Shown: one piece after another, positions 6,994-12,871 of the stretch
How positions within the stretch are numbered: the first letter of the stretch is position 1
Layout of the letters: each line of letters opens with the position of its first letter
From: a virus
Lineage: Duplodnaviria; Caudoviricetes
Length of the DNA: 35,854 nt
Virus record (IMG/VR): IMGVR_UViG_3300033406_000367
Location: 1 to 35,854 of that record
Direction: 5' to 3' (one strand)
Made by a program: the position numbers and the translations under genes
Notes under the pieces: generated by a model
Seen by the model: the letters and a program-made list of their open reading frames with translations, nothing else
What the model was told of the DNA's origin: nothing
The model's database searches: none

Positions 6994-7030
6994 GATTCCC
7001 TCCGTTTGCGTTGTTTTGCTGCTGGAGTGA

Positions 7031-7073
7031 ATAATAGGATGACTAATATTAGTGAGTCAATAGCCCGACTGAT
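7031..7073 (-). promoter_or_regulatory. PL promoter with two operators (OL)
   Basis: Minus strand TTGACT (7060-7055), 18 bp spacer, TATTAT (7036-7031). Operators AATAGGATGACTAAT (7033-7047) and AATAGCCCGACTGAT (7059-7073) resemble the OR sites. Confidence 0.8.
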
Positions 7074-7090
7074 ATTTTTTCATTGAACGC

Positions 7091-7112: not shown

Positions 7113-7203
7113 CTGATCGGAACGGCTGGTCTTTCCGATGACGCCGCTTGATACGCGGCGCCATGATGTTGTAATCTAGTCGGGCGATCTGCATGGCATG
7201 CAA

Positions 7204-7235
7204 TCGTAACGCGCACTCTTTCAATCGCGTTACGA
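7204..7235. repeat. Perfect 10-bp inverted repeat abutting the recombinase RBS
   Basis: TCGTAACGCG-(12 nt)-CGCGTTACGA; the right arm overlaps GAGGA. Confidence 0.85.
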
Positions 7236-7246
7236 GGACCGCCACC

Positions 7247-7921
7247 ATGACCAAGCGTGCAGCCGTTTTACTGCCGTCGCAACTTCGCCATCTACTTCGC
7301 GTCACCGAAGCAACAAGCCGCCACCCCGAACGGGATGTGCTGATTCTGTGGCTCGGCTTCTCCTGCGGTATGCGCGTCACAGAAACCGCCCGCCTGACCG
7401 TCGCCGACGTTCTGCATCCATCGGGCCGACTGCGCAGCGAAATCAGCCTGCGCGCCGAGATTACCAAGGGCTGCCGGCAGCGCCTGGCCTACCTGACCAA
7501 CCCGAAGCTAATTGCCGCAATGGACCGGTACATAGAGTGGCGCAATGCCAAGCGCTTCGGTTGCTCGCTAGATGGCCGGCAGTATCGCGGCCTGATGCCA
7601 GCGACCAAGCTAATCCTGACGTGGAAGGGTGGCCCCTACGAACTCAATACGAAGCGGGCCAGGAACGCGGCCGGCGAGGTTGTCGAGTACCTGGCGGCCG
7701 ACAGCTTGCAGACTTACATCAAGGGACTGTACCGCGCTGCGGGCCTATTCGATGCCTCAAGCCACTCTGGCCGGCGCACGTTCGCATCCAGGCTCATGGC
7801 GGCAGGCGAATCGCTTGAAACCGTACAGGCGCTGCTCGGCCATGCCGAACTCGATCACGTCATGCCCTATCTGGAAGTCAATCCCGCAACGATGCGAGAA
7901 ATGTTCGCCGAGGTGCTATGA
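7247..7921 (+). CDS. Short (224 aa) tyrosine recombinase, catalytic domain only
   Basis: R (GMRVTE), K (TKG), HxxR (HSGRR), H (LGH) and Y (VMPY) are all present. No N-terminal core-binding domain. GAGGA RBS before ATG 7247. Confidence 0.9.
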   Translation: MTKRAAVLLPSQLRHLLRVTEATSRHPERDVLILWLGFSCGMRVTETARLTVADVLHPSGRLRSEISLRAEITKGCRQRLAYLTNPKLIAAMDRYIEWRNAKRFGCSLDGRQYRGLMPATKLILTWKGGPYELNTKRARNAAGEVVEYLAADSLQTYIKGLYRAAGLFDASSHSGRRTFASRLMAAGESLETVQALLGHAELDHVMPYLEVNPATMREMFAEVL

Positions 7922-7940
7922 TGAAACATTGGTGTTTCAT
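7921..7940. repeat. Palindromic site A
   Basis: ATGAAACA-TTGG-TGTTTCAT, perfect 8-bp arms. Confidence 0.8.
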
Positions 7941-7969
7941 ATGGCGCATGGAAGATGGAGATAGCAACG

Positions 7970-8158
7970 ATGTACGGCGAAGACGCTCAAGCAATCAGGA
8001 AACAGTGCGGACTGACGCAGAGCGAGCTTGGCCTGCTCTGGCGAAAAAGCCGTGTTCAGATCGGCCGGTACGAGAAGGCGCAGCAGGCCGTGGAGCCGCA
8101 AGTTGCGTCTGCTTATCGCGGATTGGCTGCTGAATTATCGAAAAGAAATGCAACATAG
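7970..8158 (+). CDS. XRE-family HTH regulator (62 aa)
   Basis: IRKQCGLTQSELGLLWRKSRVQIGRYEK; GGAG RBS at 7957-7960. Confidence 0.8.
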   Translation: MYGEDAQAIRKQCGLTQSELGLLWRKSRVQIGRYEKAQQAVEPQVASAYRGLAAELSKRNAT

Positions 8159-8167
8159 GTGTTGCGT
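8148..8167. repeat. Palindromic site B, related to site A
   Basis: ATGCAACA-TAGG-TGTTGCGT; 16/20 identical to site A. Confidence 0.8.
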
Positions 8168-8190
8168 TAATGATTCACCAGTGATACATT
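8162..8190 (+). promoter_or_regulatory. Sigma70-type promoter upstream of the small-gene array
   Basis: TTGCGT (8162-8167), 17 bp spacer, TACATT (8185-8190), with extended -10 TG at 8182-8183. Confidence 0.65.
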
Positions 8191-8237
8191 AGAGTCACTA
8201 AAGAAGCATTAACGCAACCAACAAAGGAAAACGCACC

Positions 8238-8522
8238 ATGAAAATCTCTCTGCAAAAGTTGTTGGTCATTCGCCAGCGCGATTTCAATGTCCTGAACCGT
8301 GCATTTTCGGAAGGCCTTGGTGAGCGCTACATGGACCCTGAGTATTCGCTGACGCGGGAAGATGCCAAAAAGGTCGCAGTCGTGATTGAGCGCCTGGCTG
8401 ACGACGCAGACAAAGATGAAGGAATGTTCCCGCTGACGCCTGACCAGAAATGGCAAGCCATCACCGAAGTCAATCAGGCCGCCGAAGCGTTCCGTAGCCT
8501 GCTGGCTGATTTTGATCTGTAG
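8238..8522 (+). CDS. Array gene 1: acidic hypothetical protein (94 aa)
   Basis: ORF preceded by AAGGAAAA. Confidence 0.75.
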   Translation: MKISLQKLLVIRQRDFNVLNRAFSEGLGERYMDPEYSLTREDAKKVAVVIERLADDADKDEGMFPLTPDQKWQAITEVNQAAEAFRSLLADFDL

Positions 8523-8538
8523 CCCAAGGAAAACGACC

Positions 8539-8733
8539 ATGCCGGCCAAAACTCTTCAAGAGCGACAGGTTGACGCAGATGTTCGCTGCCGCCACTGGCT
8601 TGCCTTGGCGACGGACGCGAACGAAGCGGGCGACAGGGCCAAAGCAGAGCGGTGTGAAGACAAAGCGCGATTCTGGAATGATCGATGGAATCATCTGTGC
8701 GGCCGTGGCGAACGCCCGGCGCCGAAAGAATAG
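8539..8733 (+). CDS. Array gene 2: hypothetical protein (64 aa)
   Basis: MPAKTLQERQ..., preceded by AAGGAAAA. Confidence 0.7.
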   Translation: MPAKTLQERQVDADVRCRHWLALATDANEAGDRAKAERCEDKARFWNDRWNHLCGRGERPAPKE

Positions 8734-8744
8734 GAAAACGGACT

Positions 8745-8954
8745 GTGGAAGCCGAACTGACAAAGAGCGAACGTAATCAGATCGCCGAGATTCTCAATCG
8801 CAGAGCCAATGAGATTGCCGGTTTCAGCGGAGACTACAGAAAAGAAGGCAATCACTTCGGCAGCGTAGAGCTTGCGCTGACCCGAGAAATTGAGCGTCTT
8901 CGCCGACTGGCAGAGCGGGTAAGCCCGCATGAGCCTGAAGACGATGGCGACTAA
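8745..8954 (+). CDS. Array gene 3: hypothetical protein (69 aa, GTG start)
   Basis: VEAELTKSERNQIAEIL..., preceded by TAGGAAAA. Confidence 0.7.
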   Translation: MEAELTKSERNQIAEILNRRANEIAGFSGDYRKEGNHFGSVELALTREIERLRRLAERVSPHEPEDDGD

Positions 8955-8972
8955 CAAGGAAAAGGAACCGGC

Positions 8973-9320
8973 ATGAACAAGCAAGAATTTGTTGCGCAAG
9001 AGGTTGCGAAGAACAAGTCAACATTCGGGCGCTGGCACTCGACAAGAAAACGAGACTCGGCTGAACCAATGAAATTGATGTTCGAGCCTGCTCCGAGAAA
9101 CGAACTTGAAGCATTGCAGCATGGCAACGCGCTGGCGAATACCGGAAACTATCCGGTAGGGACAAGCGAGTGTTTCAACGTCGGCATCTCAGGAGGTTGC
9201 GGGCCGGATTGCTTTGTGTATCGCAAGGGTGAATGCGGAGAGCCGCAGGAGATGCTACCCGGACTCGATTCTGACGGCCTGAAACTGCACGCAGAGCTAT
9301 ACGGACCTTACGTTAAGTAA
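8973..9320 (+). CDS. Array gene 4: hypothetical protein with Cys cluster (115 aa)
   Basis: ECFNVGISGGCGPDCFVYRKGEC; preceded by AAGGAAAAGGAAC. Confidence 0.7.
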   Translation: MNKQEFVAQEVAKNKSTFGRWHSTRKRDSAEPMKLMFEPAPRNELEALQHGNALANTGNYPVGTSECFNVGISGGCGPDCFVYRKGECGEPQEMLPGLDSDGLKLHAELYGPYVK

Positions 9321-9336
9321 ACGCCACGGAAAAGAC

Positions 9337-9525
9337 ATGAGCCGCAAATGTTCAGGTTGTCAGCACTTCCAAAAAATGCGCCACTTGGCCGGCAACTCTG
9401 GGCTGTGTTTGTTGCGCGATGGGCGGGTCGACGAAGACGGCGGCTGCCAGCTCTGGAAAGCCATCCCATTTGACCGGGCCGCCGACAAAAAACGCGTTCA
9501 ATCCGAGTTGGCGCAACCTGAATAG
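9337..9525 (+). CDS. Array gene 5: small Cys-rich protein (62 aa)
   Basis: CSGCQHF...GLC...GC pattern; preceded by ACGGAAAA. Confidence 0.7.
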   Translation: MSRKCSGCQHFQKMRHLAGNSGLCLLRDGRVDEDGGCQLWKAIPFDRAADKKRVQSELAQPE

Positions 9526-9546
9526 GAAAAGGGGAATGAAAACGCG

Positions 9547-9747
9547 ATGTTGAAAGAACGTTTTTTAGCTGCGGTTGGTATCAAAACGCTGACCGCTCAG
9601 GTGACGGAGCATTGCAAGTCGCTCGGGTGGCCGGATGATGCTGCGAATGAAGCGGCCACGGACGCCGTTAGGCTTGCACAGGGCAACGAGGCTCTGAACC
9701 CAACAGCGCTCCATGAAGTGCTTAGCGAAGTTTGCCGAACCGCATAA
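9547..9747 (+). CDS. Array gene 6: hypothetical protein (66 aa)
   Basis: ORF preceded by TAGGAAAAGGGGAA. Confidence 0.6.
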   Translation: MLKERFLAAVGIKTLTAQVTEHCKSLGWPDDAANEAATDAVRLAQGNEALNPTALHEVLSEVCRTA

Positions 9748-9768
9748 CGCATAGGAAAATGAAGGAAC

Positions 9769-10506
9769 GTGACAAAGAAACAAGATCTATATCCTCTTCC
9801 GGGGTTTCCGAAAGAGAGCAAATTCACAAATCTCGGCGATGTGTCTGAGTATTTGCACGGAGAAAAGATCACCTGTTTGATTTGCGGCAGATCCTATAAG
9901 GCACTAACCGGACACATCAGCAAGCACGGAATTAGCTCCGATGAATACAAAGAGCGATTTGGCCTTCCGTTCAGGACTGGCTTAACAAGCCAAGGAACAA
10001 AGGCAAAAAACAAAGAGAATGGCGATAAAAACGTGCTTCGTCTTGGCGTCATGCGATCAATGATTGATCGTGCAGCGCAGAGTGCAGCCACAAAAACACA
10101 AAGAACAAGCGCAGCAAAGGTTCTTCAGTCAAAGATAAATGTTTCTAAAGCACCAGTTTCCGAATCTCCTTTTTCCATTGGAGATGCCATCGCTATTTTT
10201 AAGCACATGGTTGATTTCAATGTCTCGTTAAACAGTGCAGTAAAGGCGACTGGAATTATGGGAATGACCGCCTTCTGGAAGATGCTTAGTAGGCATCCGG
10301 AAGAACTCATTCCAGAATACGAGGAAGCTCGGTCGCGGGTATCAAAAGGAAGAACCAATCCTTTGATTAAGATTCAAGACGTAATAGCCGATGTTCGAGG
10401 GCAGCGATTGGCCGGTGTTCCACGGGGCGTAATAGCTGAGAAGTATGGAATACATGTCGAATATGTCTCAATCCTTGAGCGCGGTTACGACAAGCGAAAT
10501 AGATAA
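9769..10506 (+). CDS. Array gene 7: Ros/MucR-like zinc-finger protein with C-terminal HTH-like segments
   Basis: ITCLICGRSYKALTGHISKHGISSDEYKERFGLP matches the Ros/MucR finger. GTG start. Visibly AT-richer than its neighbours. Confidence 0.7.
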   Translation: MTKKQDLYPLPGFPKESKFTNLGDVSEYLHGEKITCLICGRSYKALTGHISKHGISSDEYKERFGLPFRTGLTSQGTKAKNKENGDKNVLRLGVMRSMIDRAAQSAATKTQRTSAAKVLQSKINVSKAPVSESPFSIGDAIAIFKHMVDFNVSLNSAVKATGIMGMTAFWKMLSRHPEELIPEYEEARSRVSKGRTNPLIKIQDVIADVRGQRLAGVPRGVIAEKYGIHVEYVSILERGYDKRNR

Positions 10507-10520
10507 GAAAAGGAACGACC

Positions 10521-11000
10521 ATGGGATTGGATTGCTCTCACAACGCTTGGCATGGTGCATACGGCGCGTTTATGCGGTGGCGAAAGATGCTGGCGGAAGT
10601 GGCCGGATTGCCGCCTCTTGAGCTGATGGATGGGTTCTACTCCAAACTGGGCAGCAAAGGCCCGGGAATACCGACTCTGTATCACGGGATTAATACAAAC
10701 GAGCCTGCTTTTGGTCATGAATCTCGGCCGCACCTGGCGGAAATTGATGACCATCTGCCGATCCAGTGGGATTGCTTAAAGCCTAGCCCGCTCCATGAGT
10801 TGCTTTACCACAGTGATTGCGATGGCGAAATTGCAGCCGAGAACTGCGGACCGATTGCTGACGCGCTTGAAGCGCTCATTCCGCTTCTTCCAGATGAGCA
10901 AGCCGGTGGACACATTTGTCATTGGCGCGAAAAGACACAACAGTTCGTTGATGGCCTTCGGGCTGCTGCTGCTGCCGGCGAAGCGCTTGATTTTCACTAG
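10521..11000 (+). CDS. Array gene 8: hypothetical protein (159 aa)
   Basis: MGLD...LLYHSDCDGEI pattern; preceded by TAAGAAAAGGAAC. Confidence 0.75.
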   Translation: MGLDCSHNAWHGAYGAFMRWRKMLAEVAGLPPLELMDGFYSKLGSKGPGIPTLYHGINTNEPAFGHESRPHLAEIDDHLPIQWDCLKPSPLHELLYHSDCDGEIAAENCGPIADALEALIPLLPDEQAGGHICHWREKTQQFVDGLRAAAAAGEALDFH

Positions 11001-11026
11001 CAACTAACACCACGGAAAAGAACGCC

Positions 11027-11206
11027 ATGATTTTTGACGACATGCGTCGGGAGGTGAAGGAGTTGCTGGCCCTGGTCCGCAAGGATGAGCAGTATTGCGC
11101 TGCGGTGATGTCGGGAGAAGTTGATCCGAGCGCCGAGGCCGTTGCCGAGCATGTCCGCCGCGCCACTCGCATTGCTGAACTCACTGACCACTACGGTCTG
11201 CGCTAA
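11027..11206 (+). CDS. Array gene 9: hypothetical protein (59 aa, absent from the ORF track)
   Basis: Manual translation MIFDDMRREVKELLALVRKDEQYCAAVMSGEVDPSAEAVAEHVRRATRIAELTDHYGLR; fills the gap between two GGAAAA motifs. Confidence 0.7.
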   Translation: MIFDDMRREVKELLALVRKDEQYCAAVMSGEVDPSAEAVAEHVRRATRIAELTDHYGLR

Positions 11207-11224
11207 CCAGGAAAAGGAACGGTG

Positions 11225-11479
11225 ATGGAATGGCAACCGATTGAAACTGCGCCGAAGGACGGGACTCTGTTCCTAGGATGGGTTGGCGCAGAGAGGTGGA
11301 GTAGCCCTGACGGCGAATGCTCAAGCTGCGCGCATGACGTATCGCAAGTTGATTTTTGTTGGTGGCGCGCGGCGCATGAGTCAACAGAAGGCGGGTTCTT
11401 TGATAATTCATCTGGCCAGATAGGCGATGCGCAAGACGTAACCCACTGGATGCCACTGCCGGCACCGCCTTCTAACTGA
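11225..11479 (+). CDS. Array gene 10: DUF551-like phage protein
   Basis: WQPIETAPKDG...VTHWMPLPAPP signature. Confidence 0.8.
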   Translation: MEWQPIETAPKDGTLFLGWVGAERWSSPDGECSSCAHDVSQVDFCWWRAAHESTEGGFFDNSSGQIGDAQDVTHWMPLPAPPSN

Positions 11480-11493
11480 CTAGGAAAATGATC

Positions 11494-11763
11494 ATGGCTG
11501 ACCTTCACCTGAACCTGAAAGGCGAATACTTCGACCAGATCAAAGCCGGTACGAAGCTGTTTGAATTTCGCCTGGTGTCGAAGTGGGCAAAACGCCTTGA
11601 AGGAAAGTCATTCGACCGAATTTTCATCAAGCGCGGATATCCGAAAACCGGCGATACCGAACGGATCATTGAACGACCATGGCGCGGCTTTGAGTTACAG
11701 ACGCGAATGCACCCGCACTTTGGCCCTGATCCGGTTGAAGTCTTCGCAATCCGCGTCAATTGA
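11494..11763 (+). CDS. Array gene 11: ASCH/PUA-like domain protein
   Basis: LHLNLKGEYFDQIKAGTKLFEFR (GxKxxExR motif). Confidence 0.8.
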   Translation: MADLHLNLKGEYFDQIKAGTKLFEFRLVSKWAKRLEGKSFDRIFIKRGYPKTGDTERIIERPWRGFELQTRMHPHFGPDPVEVFAIRVN

Positions 11764-11787
11764 ACAGAAGGTAAAACGCGAAATCAC

Positions 11788-11819
11788 AGCCCGGCGTCCT
11801 CACGGATAGCCGGGCTTTT
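11788..11819 (+). terminator. Terminator closing the array
   Basis: AGCCCGGC-gTCCtcacGGAta-GCCGGGCT-TTT. Confidence 0.65.
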
Positions 11820-11821
11820 AA

Positions 11822-12085
11822 ATGGCAACTATGACTAAGGTTATAATTCTGCCAATGAGACGACGCGGCCCATACGCAATCAATGCAGTACGTTCAACCG
11901 AAACGGCACAAGTTCTTCGCGAACTAGCCGACCTCGCCGAACGCGGGGAGGTAATTGGTATAGCATATGTTGCAATCCGTCCGAATCGAAAAGTCATTGC
12001 CGCAACCGCTGGCGTTGCTACCGCCGATCCTCCACTAGTGACGCACTGGCTTGCAAAGCTGTCCCATGTTCTACTTGAATCCTAA
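11822..12085 (+). CDS. Hypothetical protein convergent with cI
   Basis: 87 aa ORF containing VLRELADLAERGEVIGIAYV; start uncertain. Confidence 0.6.
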   Translation: MATMTKVIILPMRRRGPYAINAVRSTETAQVLRELADLAERGEVIGIAYVAIRPNRKVIAATAGVATADPPLVTHWLAKLSHVLLES

Positions 12086-12160
12086 AAAGCAAACGGCAGG
12101 CTTCCACCCCGCCGTCTCCGCGCGCAGCCACTGCAAACCCAAGAAGTTTGCCCCGCCGGA

Positions 12161-12769
12161 TCATTGCTCTCCCTCAGCCCGCTTTCGCGGGTTTTTTTTT
12201 GCATCCGGCGCATCGCTATCAATTAGTAGGTGACCAAGAAATCGATTCGACGATGGGGAGGATTCTGCCACCACTACCGGTTTTCCGGTATTAGACGAAC
12301 GGCATAGTTTGCCGGATATTTCAGATTCTACAGCGCGCTCATTTGGCACCAGATCGGAATAGTCGAGGCCAAAGGCTTTCAGCACGCCACTCACCGCCGC
12401 CTTGATCTGTGCATAAGTAACGGACGGCACTTCATTGGAAACAGAAGGCGGCGCAGACAGTGATCTTGATAGCACCCTGTTGGCGGCCGTTGCCTTTATC
12501 GAGCCAGAAATCACCATTGTCGACGCAAGCGATGGGCTTATTTCCGCCGGATCAACTTCCATCGCTTCGGAAAACTTGCACAGCGCCGGAAGATTGAGCG
12601 GGATTTTCCCGTTCATGTACTGGCTGACCGTTCCCTGCGTTTTCCATCCGCAAGCCTCGGCAAGCGACTCCTGGGTCAGATTCTTGTGACTTTTCTTCTC
12701 GCGGATAAAGACGGCTTTCAGTCTTTCTGCGTCGGCGAGTTGCTCTTCAGTTAGTGGTTGTGCTGGCAT
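12161..12769 (-). CDS. cI: CI-like repressor (lambda-CI-type N-terminal HTH, no recognisable S24 peptidase domain)
   Basis: PLTEEQLADAERLKAVF...LTQESLAEACGWKTQGTVSQYMNGKIPLN...EISPSLA closely parallels the lambda CI N-domain; divergent from cro. Confidence 0.85.
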   Translation of the reverse strand: MPAQPLTEEQLADAERLKAVFIREKKSHKNLTQESLAEACGWKTQGTVSQYMNGKIPLNLPALCKFSEAMEVDPAEISPSLASTMVISGSIKATAANRVLSRSLSAPPSVSNEVPSVTYAQIKAAVSGVLKAFGLDYSDLVPNERAVESEISGKLCRSSNTGKPVVVAESSPSSNRFLGHLLIDSDAPDAKKNPRKRAEGEQ

Positions 12770-12778
12770 GGTTGGATT

Positions 12779-12845
12779 ATCAGCCTCGCTAATGAGCAAA
12801 ACAAACAGTCAGACTATTGACGTGCAACAATAGTCCGACTAATAT
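12779..12845. promoter_or_regulatory. OR operators (three, 25-bp spacing) and PR promoter
   Basis: ATCAGCCTCGCTAAT (12779), AACAGTCAGACTATT (12804), AATAGTCCGACTAAT (12829). PR is TTGACG (12817-12822), 17 bp, TAATAT (12840-12845). Confidence 0.85.
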
Positions 12846-12871
12846 TCGTGGGCCAATCATTAGGACCGCCC

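Follow-up and report, generated by a model that had tools for sequence, protein, structure and literature searches.

Integrons are the textbook gene-capture platform, and the origin of their cassettes is, to our knowledge, an open question. Several other systems move DNA at short sites: the Rci shufflon has an element-encoded tyrosine recombinase that acts on repeated sites with one conserved arm and inverts segments; pdif sites of Acinetobacter plasmids are two-armed, about 28 bp long and used by host XerC/XerD; Tn916/Tn1549-type integrases have arm- and core-binding domains and no cassette array; and poxvirus topoisomerase IB cuts just 3′ of its recognition pentamer. Here we analyse a recombinase-headed block of small genes in a lambdoid phage, IMG/VR record IMGVR_UViG_3300033406_000367 (35,854 nt; the window is this whole virus record). 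The block works like an integron and is not one, its enzyme not being IntI and its sites having no attC hairpin. Judged by comparison of sequences, it is an array of single-gene units that, in related arrays, exchange exactly 3′ of a GGAAAN hexamer, where the recombinase at its head probably cuts and rejoins the DNA. The likeness is to the integron as described in PMC4792948 and bioRxiv 10.1101/2022.09.11.507474: a tyrosine recombinase heads apparently promoterless one-gene cassettes, each ending in its own site and all in one orientation, with change near the promoter, orphan arrays and a crossover after an A-rich stretch (IntI uses the triplet 5′-AAC-3′).

The array comprises 11 co-oriented, non-overlapping open reading frames (ORFs) of 59–245 aa that span 8238–11763, single gaps of 10–25 nt making up 173 of its 3,526 nt. 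GGAAAA occurs on the plus strand at 8226, 8528, 8733, 8958, 9328, 9525, 9754, 11014, 11210 and 11483, that is, once ahead of gene 1 and once in each of nine gaps; the tenth gap has AGAAAA (10506), GGTAAA lies 3′ of gene 11 (11770) and no plus-strand copy of GGAAAA lies inside an array gene. With gene starts chosen by us from the ORF list, GGAAAA stands upstream of 10/11 array genes versus 1/41 other phage genes (Fisher p = 7e-9). Counted over all of the window, GGAAAA shows no more than mild enrichment (33 observed against 22 expected), so the signal is its position. It falls 9–22 nt ahead of start codons and is Shine–Dalgarno-like, and several array leaders have another GGA nearer the start codon. 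Cassette GC content ranges from 0.45 to 0.60 and is lowest in gene 7 (0.449). The original prediction, made from the letters of the window and its ORFs, of 11 unrelated, co-oriented and non-overlapping small genes of uneven composition with an AT-rich gene 7 and a common junction motif is borne out, with one variant motif.

Comparison of related arrays indicates that the cassettes move as units of one gene each, with ends set by the sites. The 16 array sequences compared yield 96 matches of ≥95% identity, not one of them on the minus strand, and near-identical cassettes recur beside new neighbours, always in the same orientation. Counting a breakpoint as at the motif when it lies within 15 nt of one in both sequences, 52/68 left ends and 47/60 right ends of shared cassettes qualify, compared with 26% for a random position; homologous recombinases head variable arrays with breaks at the motif, as the original prediction expected. 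In Pseudomonas pairs that share the downstream unit, identity rises from 16/44 at base +5 to 43/44 at +6; where the upstream unit is shared it falls from 34/41 at +5 to 24 at +7 and 12 at +8. These alignments place the crossover just 3′ of the hexamer, which reads GGAAAN and not a fixed GGAAAA. The switch in identity between +5 and +6 means that a unit runs from the base after one hexamer to the last base of the following one, the rule by which the cassette bounds in Table 1 were set. A unit opens with a short leader and a single ORF and, a few bases further on, closes with its own hexamer; the hexamer mostly travels with the upstream unit. Two X-Y-X duplications were found, in locus L004 (99.5% over 364 bp) and in L235, and the sister plasmids L324 and L229 hold empty and filled forms of one junction (1.9 kb). 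Between sister arrays most differences lie close to the promoter, the far ends being retained: in successive fifths, coverage of L328 by L329 is 0, 0, 0.68, 0.81 and 1.0, and that of L331 by L332 is 0.33, 0.26, 1.0, 1.0 and 0.89.

Shuffling with minimal sites in place of attC hairpins, the core of the original prediction, stands as regards the breakpoints and the lack of hairpins; its fixed motif gives way to GGAAAN, and no distinct attI-like site was found, the first site having no extra conserved sequence across lineages. Folding of 88/176 strict sites per test gave mean z scores of −0.3 to +0.25 on both strands and no attC-like hairpin. No attC core heptamer (RYYYAAC/GTTRRRY) occurs in the window gaps, a single GTTRRRY lying at 9312 within the end of gene 4, and TTTCC, the would-be partner arm, shows no enrichment up to 120 nt on either side of the sites. 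One-base microhomology between neighbouring junctions was considered and is unsupported (79/105 at +6 versus 77.7 by permutation).

The recombinase combines the catalytic set R43, K74, H173, R176, H199 and Y208 with a YRG loop and an 18-aa β-hairpin insertion, and this R-K-H-R-H-Y set in an integrase fold places it in the tyrosine recombinase superfamily. All six residues are invariant in 40/40 aligned close homologues. Its best fold match is archaeal XerA, followed by IntI4 and Tn1549 Int. NCBIfam scores are all far under their cut-offs; the 38.8 bits for TIGR02249 (cut-off 265) and the catalytic-domain-only length of 224 aa rule out identity with IntI. Where IntI has helix I2, no long helix is modelled (positions 110–130, predicted local distance difference test score only 62–67). 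The YRG loop and β-hairpin are present in array-linked proteins and absent from array-less relatives; alignment by hidden Markov model, the one basis of the kinship comparison with IntI, places both over the insertion region of IntI4.

Homologue searches returned 751/1734 candidates at E 1e-30 or better, and 204 plasmid records match at E 1e-20, a count that includes a sister clade and fragments. Of 192 short recombinases found, 53 with <2.5 kb downstream were dropped; a quick tree of the other 139, supported by the Shimodaira–Hasegawa-like approximate likelihood ratio test (SH-aLRT) only, puts the window recombinase in a clade of 24 (SH-aLRT 98), the positions of the Vibrio row and the degenerate clade being unsure. 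Downstream DNA is junction-rich in 17/24 clade members and in 10/110 other short recombinases (p = 1e-9). Longer forms are rare, with two matches as weak evidence. Short tyrosine recombinases of ~30% identity also occur in phiCbK-like and related large alphaproteobacterial phages (H1–H39), whose members in the tree have no arrays and, with one exception, no left-end motif. Six out-of-clade short recombinases (L206, L209, L026, L028, L190 and L067) have 6–9 junction-like motifs downstream, which could be further array lineages or AT-rich background.

On plasmids and contigs of beta- and gammaproteobacteria, recombinases of this clade stand at the head of arrays whose motif is the same but whose genes differ. 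Its closest named homologues, on Azonexus and Aromatoleum plasmids (82–83%), repeat the window layout, and the same anatomy is found in Burkholderia, Pseudomonas, Aeromonas and Vibrio loci. Host plasmids include Aeromonas salmonicida pAsa5, Pseudomonas fluorescens pA506 and P. aeruginosa conjugative plasmids, on which the system is annotated only as a ‘site-specific integrase’ and runs of hypothetical genes; one P. aeruginosa array has ~60 annotated genes, with a site ≤40 nt from the stop codon in 47/60 gaps. A logo of 249 called sites conserves only (A/C)GGAAAR, a core partly built in by the motif list used for calling, and in Vibrio the left and array motifs shift together (TTTTCCCCC and GGGGAAA). 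The system is mainly plasmid-borne and the window phage is one landing place. Array DNA itself had no match on plasmids and three short matches in phages. Cassette 11 (94% DNA identity) recurs with the terminator (95%) after the lysis genes of another phage, L340, with a 61-nt gene-less insert containing a palindrome between them (L340:230-290). Paired sites are missing (0/10) around homologues of genes 8 and 11 that lie in ordinary phage contexts, one of which has GGAAAA downstream, and this fits recruitment from phage operons; cassette 8 has an 86% homologue without sites in another phage. No family recombinase was found in four virus records with homologues of gene 8 or 11, three of them fragments.

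Several observations weigh against assigning the shuffling to the head recombinase. The sister clade, conserved and found in 82 plasmid records at E 1e-25, is without R43, K74, H173 and Y208 in 6/6 copies examined. R176 and the left site are retained, and the GGAAAN arrays that this clade heads are equally variable; plasmid W02, with a degenerate copy, has no other family copy, yet its array differs from those of 99%-identical sister plasmids. Arrays without any recombinase occur in L233 and L324. The crossover map comes partly from arrays headed by the degenerate clade, and its ends are not independent (109 distinct junctions) and are from Pseudomonas, not the window's own lineage. Of the 128 alignment ends, 29 were not scored at the motif, some lying within genes; 7/24 clade members are not junction-rich by the score used; change near the promoter is less clean in L327/L329 and L329/L330; and the 61-nt indel after cassette 11 in L340 is not a clean fit to the crossover rule. 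No empty platform site turned up in related phages: of 85 loci retrieved with cI and Bet, not one has the platform or a DNA match spanning the flanks of the block, and a leader pattern search of viral contigs had no match. Purging of the hexamer from cassette ORFs is not counted, as its signal in one set (4 versus 10.5–15.1 expected) weakened on re-test with an annotation-based set (7 versus 11.3–13.6) and lost specificity, a control motif being depleted too; with no clear purging, a bare hexamer may be insufficient as a site.

The degenerate clade and the orphan arrays are what speaks for a different division of labour, in which the units are mobile and a host- or plasmid-encoded enzyme cuts at GGAAAN, the recombinase-fold protein binding as adaptor, repressor or lock. 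We regard this as unlikely: six catalytic residues are complete in 22/24 members of the window clade, active- and degenerate-headed arrays have cassettes in common at 98–100% identity (L328/L332), one plasmid carries both recombinase types, and no second gene is common to all examined loci. The common cassettes and the plasmid with both types make action in trans plausible. A reading that we find quite unlikely takes the platform for a small element akin to a transposon, its inverted ends being TTTCC on the left and GGAAA on the right, and the arrays for records of its hops, any downstream hexamer serving as right end on excision so that hops pick up genes. It would account for the sharp homology edge at the inverted site, the varied insertion contexts (a phage immunity region, after lysis genes, many plasmid spots), the joint motif shift in Vibrio and the presence of Tn1549 Int among the fold matches. 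Hops would add genes at the far end, however, just where the arrays are conserved; individual cassettes are found duplicated, gained or lost within arrays, no empty site of the platform was found in related phages or viral contigs, and the fixed distance from the inverted site to the −10 hexamer also fits an operator. Such hopping may also be a second activity of the same enzyme and not an alternative.

The Shine–Dalgarno-like place of the motif, 9–22 nt before start codons, would suit a ribosome-binding motif and nothing more, with illegitimate or short-homology recombination and selection keeping breaks at gene edges. This seems very improbable given the 1/41 frequency at other phage genes, the leaders with another GGA nearer the start, the hexamer's travel with the upstream gene, the one-base switch in identity, its tracking of one recombinase clade, and the 0/10 phage homologues of genes 8 and 11 with the motif on both sides. 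Most improbable of all is a plasmid or phage dimer resolvase with a toxin–antitoxin or helix-turn-helix (HTH) stability module, the array being a by-product at secondary sites. Type II toxin–antitoxin pairs follow the recombinase in many loci and dyads precede its gene, but no long conserved two-armed site was found upstream, the dyad there varies in sequence and folds over the ribosome-binding site, and arrays of up to ~60 genes are ordered and promoter-polar.

The head recombinase is the likely agent on which shuffling depends. The enzyme would bind the hexamer as a half-site, cut the top strand after base 6, keep the 3′ end as a phosphotyrosine and swap the strand with another site. Tyrosine recombinases retain the 3′ end adjoining the arm they bind, a rule that matches an arm GGAAAN with a cut after N. 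Excision would yield a one-gene circle, and insertion, if favoured at promoter-proximal sites, would put the gene under the HTH-controlled promoter. One conserved arm and unrelated DNA 3′ of the cut make a single strand exchange resolved by replication the simplest route, and quite possibly the one taken; PMC4792948 describes this route for IntI. More tentatively, operons of phages and plasmids, with ribosome-binding sites similar to the hexamer, might be the source of new units. It is more doubtful that the whole amounts to a second, independently evolved and widespread gene-capture platform, in which a half-size recombinase takes a ribosome-binding-site-like hexamer as half-site, cuts genes from ordinary operons and stacks them under one promoter, with the catalytically dead sister as a non-cutting subunit or lock.

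The platform that carries the recombinase has recognizable ends and its own apparent control (Table 1). TTTCC lies ~110 nt upstream of the recombinase start codon in 23/24 clade members versus 8/107 other relatives; homology to L004 begins at 7129, and in close pairs it begins 2–5 nt upstream of the inverted site, which is likely the left end of the platform. This site may allow the complete platform to move, or may act in repression of its own promoter. Breaks at the first hexamer, as between the window and L005, recur in L093/L094/L081/L109 and L100/L098. Single-sequence folds of recombinase leaders have z below −2 in 22/27 homologues, and RNAalifold gave no consensus structure from an input alignment that was out of register; the leader hairpin likely damps translation and keeps the enzyme scarce. 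The two similar palindromes are likely operators of the HTH protein, through which it would repress its own promoter and that of the array. Elsewhere the slot after the recombinase holds another HTH protein, a TrfB/PapB-like regulator or a type II toxin–antitoxin pair. HTH-plus-promoter units with their own palindromes, resembling promoter cassettes, also stand inside arrays at L004:13882-14140 and L005:14212-14530. Upstream of the Azonexus recombinase (L004:5500-7560), small genes are separated by another repeat of the GCGTTACGA / GCGTATTCCGAG type, which resembles the 3′ arm of the recombinase leader hairpin and is perhaps another array or a regulon.

Table 1. Features of the platform and array in the window, in order of position.
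Feature	Position	Strand	Basis and remarks
Inverted site (GGAAAG on − strand), 25 nt upstream of −10-like hexamer	7131–7136	−	Motif and homology edge
Predicted −10 hexamer of recombinase promoter, CATGAT	7162–7167	+	Inferred from fixed spacing from inverted site, alignment read by eye
Leader hairpin, 10-bp stem, extending into recombinase ribosome-binding site	7204–7235	+	Folding
Tyrosine recombinase, catalytic domain only, 224 aa	7247–7921	+	PF00589 as sole domain
Palindrome 1, ATGAAACA-TTGG-TGTTTCAT, after extended −10 at recombinase stop; putative operator	7921–7940		Sequence; similar dyad in L005
HTH regulator	7955–8158	+	PF01381; 82% to L005 gene
Palindrome 2, GCAACA-TAGG-TGTTGC, overlapping array −35; putative operator	8150–8165		Identical in L005
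Predicted array promoter, within 24-bp inverted repeat (8161–8218)	8162–8190	+	Sequence; absent from scan list
First site GGAAAA, end of platform	8226–8231	+	Window/L005 homology stops at 8231
Cassette 1, ends in own site	8232–8533	+	ORF 8238–8522, 94 aa
Cassette 2	8534–8738	+	ORF 8540–8733
Cassette 3	8739–8963	+	ORF 8745–8954
Cassette 4	8964–9333	+	ORF 8973–9320
Cassette 5	9334–9530	+	ORF 9337–9525
Cassette 6	9531–9759	+	ORF 9547–9747
Cassette 7, ends in variant AGAAAA	9760–10511	+	ORF 9769–10506, Ros/MucR zinc finger, PF05443 (E 3e-12), GC 0.45
Cassette 8	10512–11019	+	ORF 10521–11000, phrog_11026
Cassette 9	11020–11215	+	ORF 11027–11206
Cassette 10	11216–11488	+	ORF 11222–11479, DUF551, PF04448
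Cassette 11, ends in variant GGTAAA	11489–11775	+	ORF 11494–11763, phrog_625
Predicted array terminator	11788–11819	+	Sequence; right edge of L340 homology

The surrounding phage has integrase, excisionase, exonuclease, Bet, cI, cro, cII, terminase and portal genes, and the block (recombinase, HTH gene and 11 ORFs) occupies the plus strand between OL (7030–7079) and the end of cI (12161). The OL-like repeats match OR at 12798–12861 and lie ~5.1 kb from the end of cI, in line with the ~5 kb separation noted earlier; the claimed HTH gene and the additional, short tyrosine recombinase, distinct from the 333-aa phage integrase (171–1172), are likewise present. The single array promoter and the terminator that had been proposed are both legible in the sequence (TTGCGT-17-TACATT with TG; a terminator with a 13-nt loop) and both missing from the consensus scan list. 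Weak by consensus, they have support from homologues, with TTGACG-17-TATATT, a stronger consensus, at the same place in L005, and the terminator at the end of L340 homology (window 11819). The homology with L340 does not extend to positions 11822–12197, where an ORF of 84–87 aa (weak phrog_35043), with terminators on both strands, lies between the array terminator and cI. PADLOC matched none of the cassette genes, and Rfam gave nothing above chance.

Other features were observed near the related arrays. Long GC-rich tandem repeats occur on several Pseudomonas and Aeromonas plasmids (L229:6342-6887, L324:6044-6903, L230:15154-16067, L235:2300-4850 and L236:7630-9630), with ~104–110 bp units in L229, L324 and L230. 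Downstream of the site, some Pseudomonas cassettes have a common ~90-nt leader that could be a structured RNA or an internal promoter (L238:6311-6405, L326:2683-2757, L326:3973-4066 and L327:7999-8087). Anti-CRISPR genes lie ~10 kb from an orphan array (L324:20358-20974) and a Pycsar defence pair directly upstream of a platform (L331:571-3122). Degenerate family copies are at L328:6821-7483, L234:5053-5715 and in L333–L336, two of them beside SOS-response peptidase or imuA genes.

Such a system would explain small-gene blocks on well-sequenced plasmids and would define a mobile accessory gene pool common to plasmids and phages (NinX-like, AbiJ-NTD4, RhuM, GNAT, Ros/MucR and DUF551), whose members could be tested for roles in defence and counter-defence. 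The need for a single short arm would make such a recombinase interesting mechanistically, and capture from operons, if true, would offer a direct, testable route for the birth of gene cassettes. We found no description of the system in the portions of the literature available, including those of bioRxiv 10.1101/542381 and PMC6354349, and a passing mention in a plasmid genome paper is possible.

Set beside known systems, the window locus shares with pdif modules the bounding of plasmid genes by short recombination sites; its type of site has one conserved 6–7 nt arm and an element-encoded recombinase, and the 249-site logo, with no partner TTTCC, rules out pdif/XerCD modules. A shufflon or invertase is ruled out by array sites that are all direct repeats and by the lack of minus-strand matches; these arrays gain and lose whole genes, and no inverted shared segment was seen. 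The left end of the platform could be described in terms of Tn916/Tn1549-type elements, which have inverted end arms and tolerate unrelated flanks. Poxvirus topoisomerase IB, with a short one-sided recognition pentamer, (C/T)CCTT (PMC2666729), has the same catalytic fold, relaxes DNA and has no cassette array, and is an analogy only. The rulB ‘integron-like elements’ (ILEs) and GInt (PMC5385486) resemble the system in name and in having tyrosine recombinases beside variable cargo in Pseudomonas; according to PMC4542609, the former have three large recombinases (385, 525 and 535 aa), move as a block into rulB and yielded no attI, so that identity with a one-gene, 224-aa system is ruled out. The nearest relation in working is the integron, from which the window family differs in having no core-binding domain (224 aa versus about 320 for IntI), a recombinase co-oriented with the array, a regulator or toxin–antitoxin pair between the two, an inverted left-end site and a degenerate sister clade. 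The insertions of the window enzyme lie in the same region as those of IntI4, and the layout of an integron is here reached with a half-size enzyme and a six-base site.

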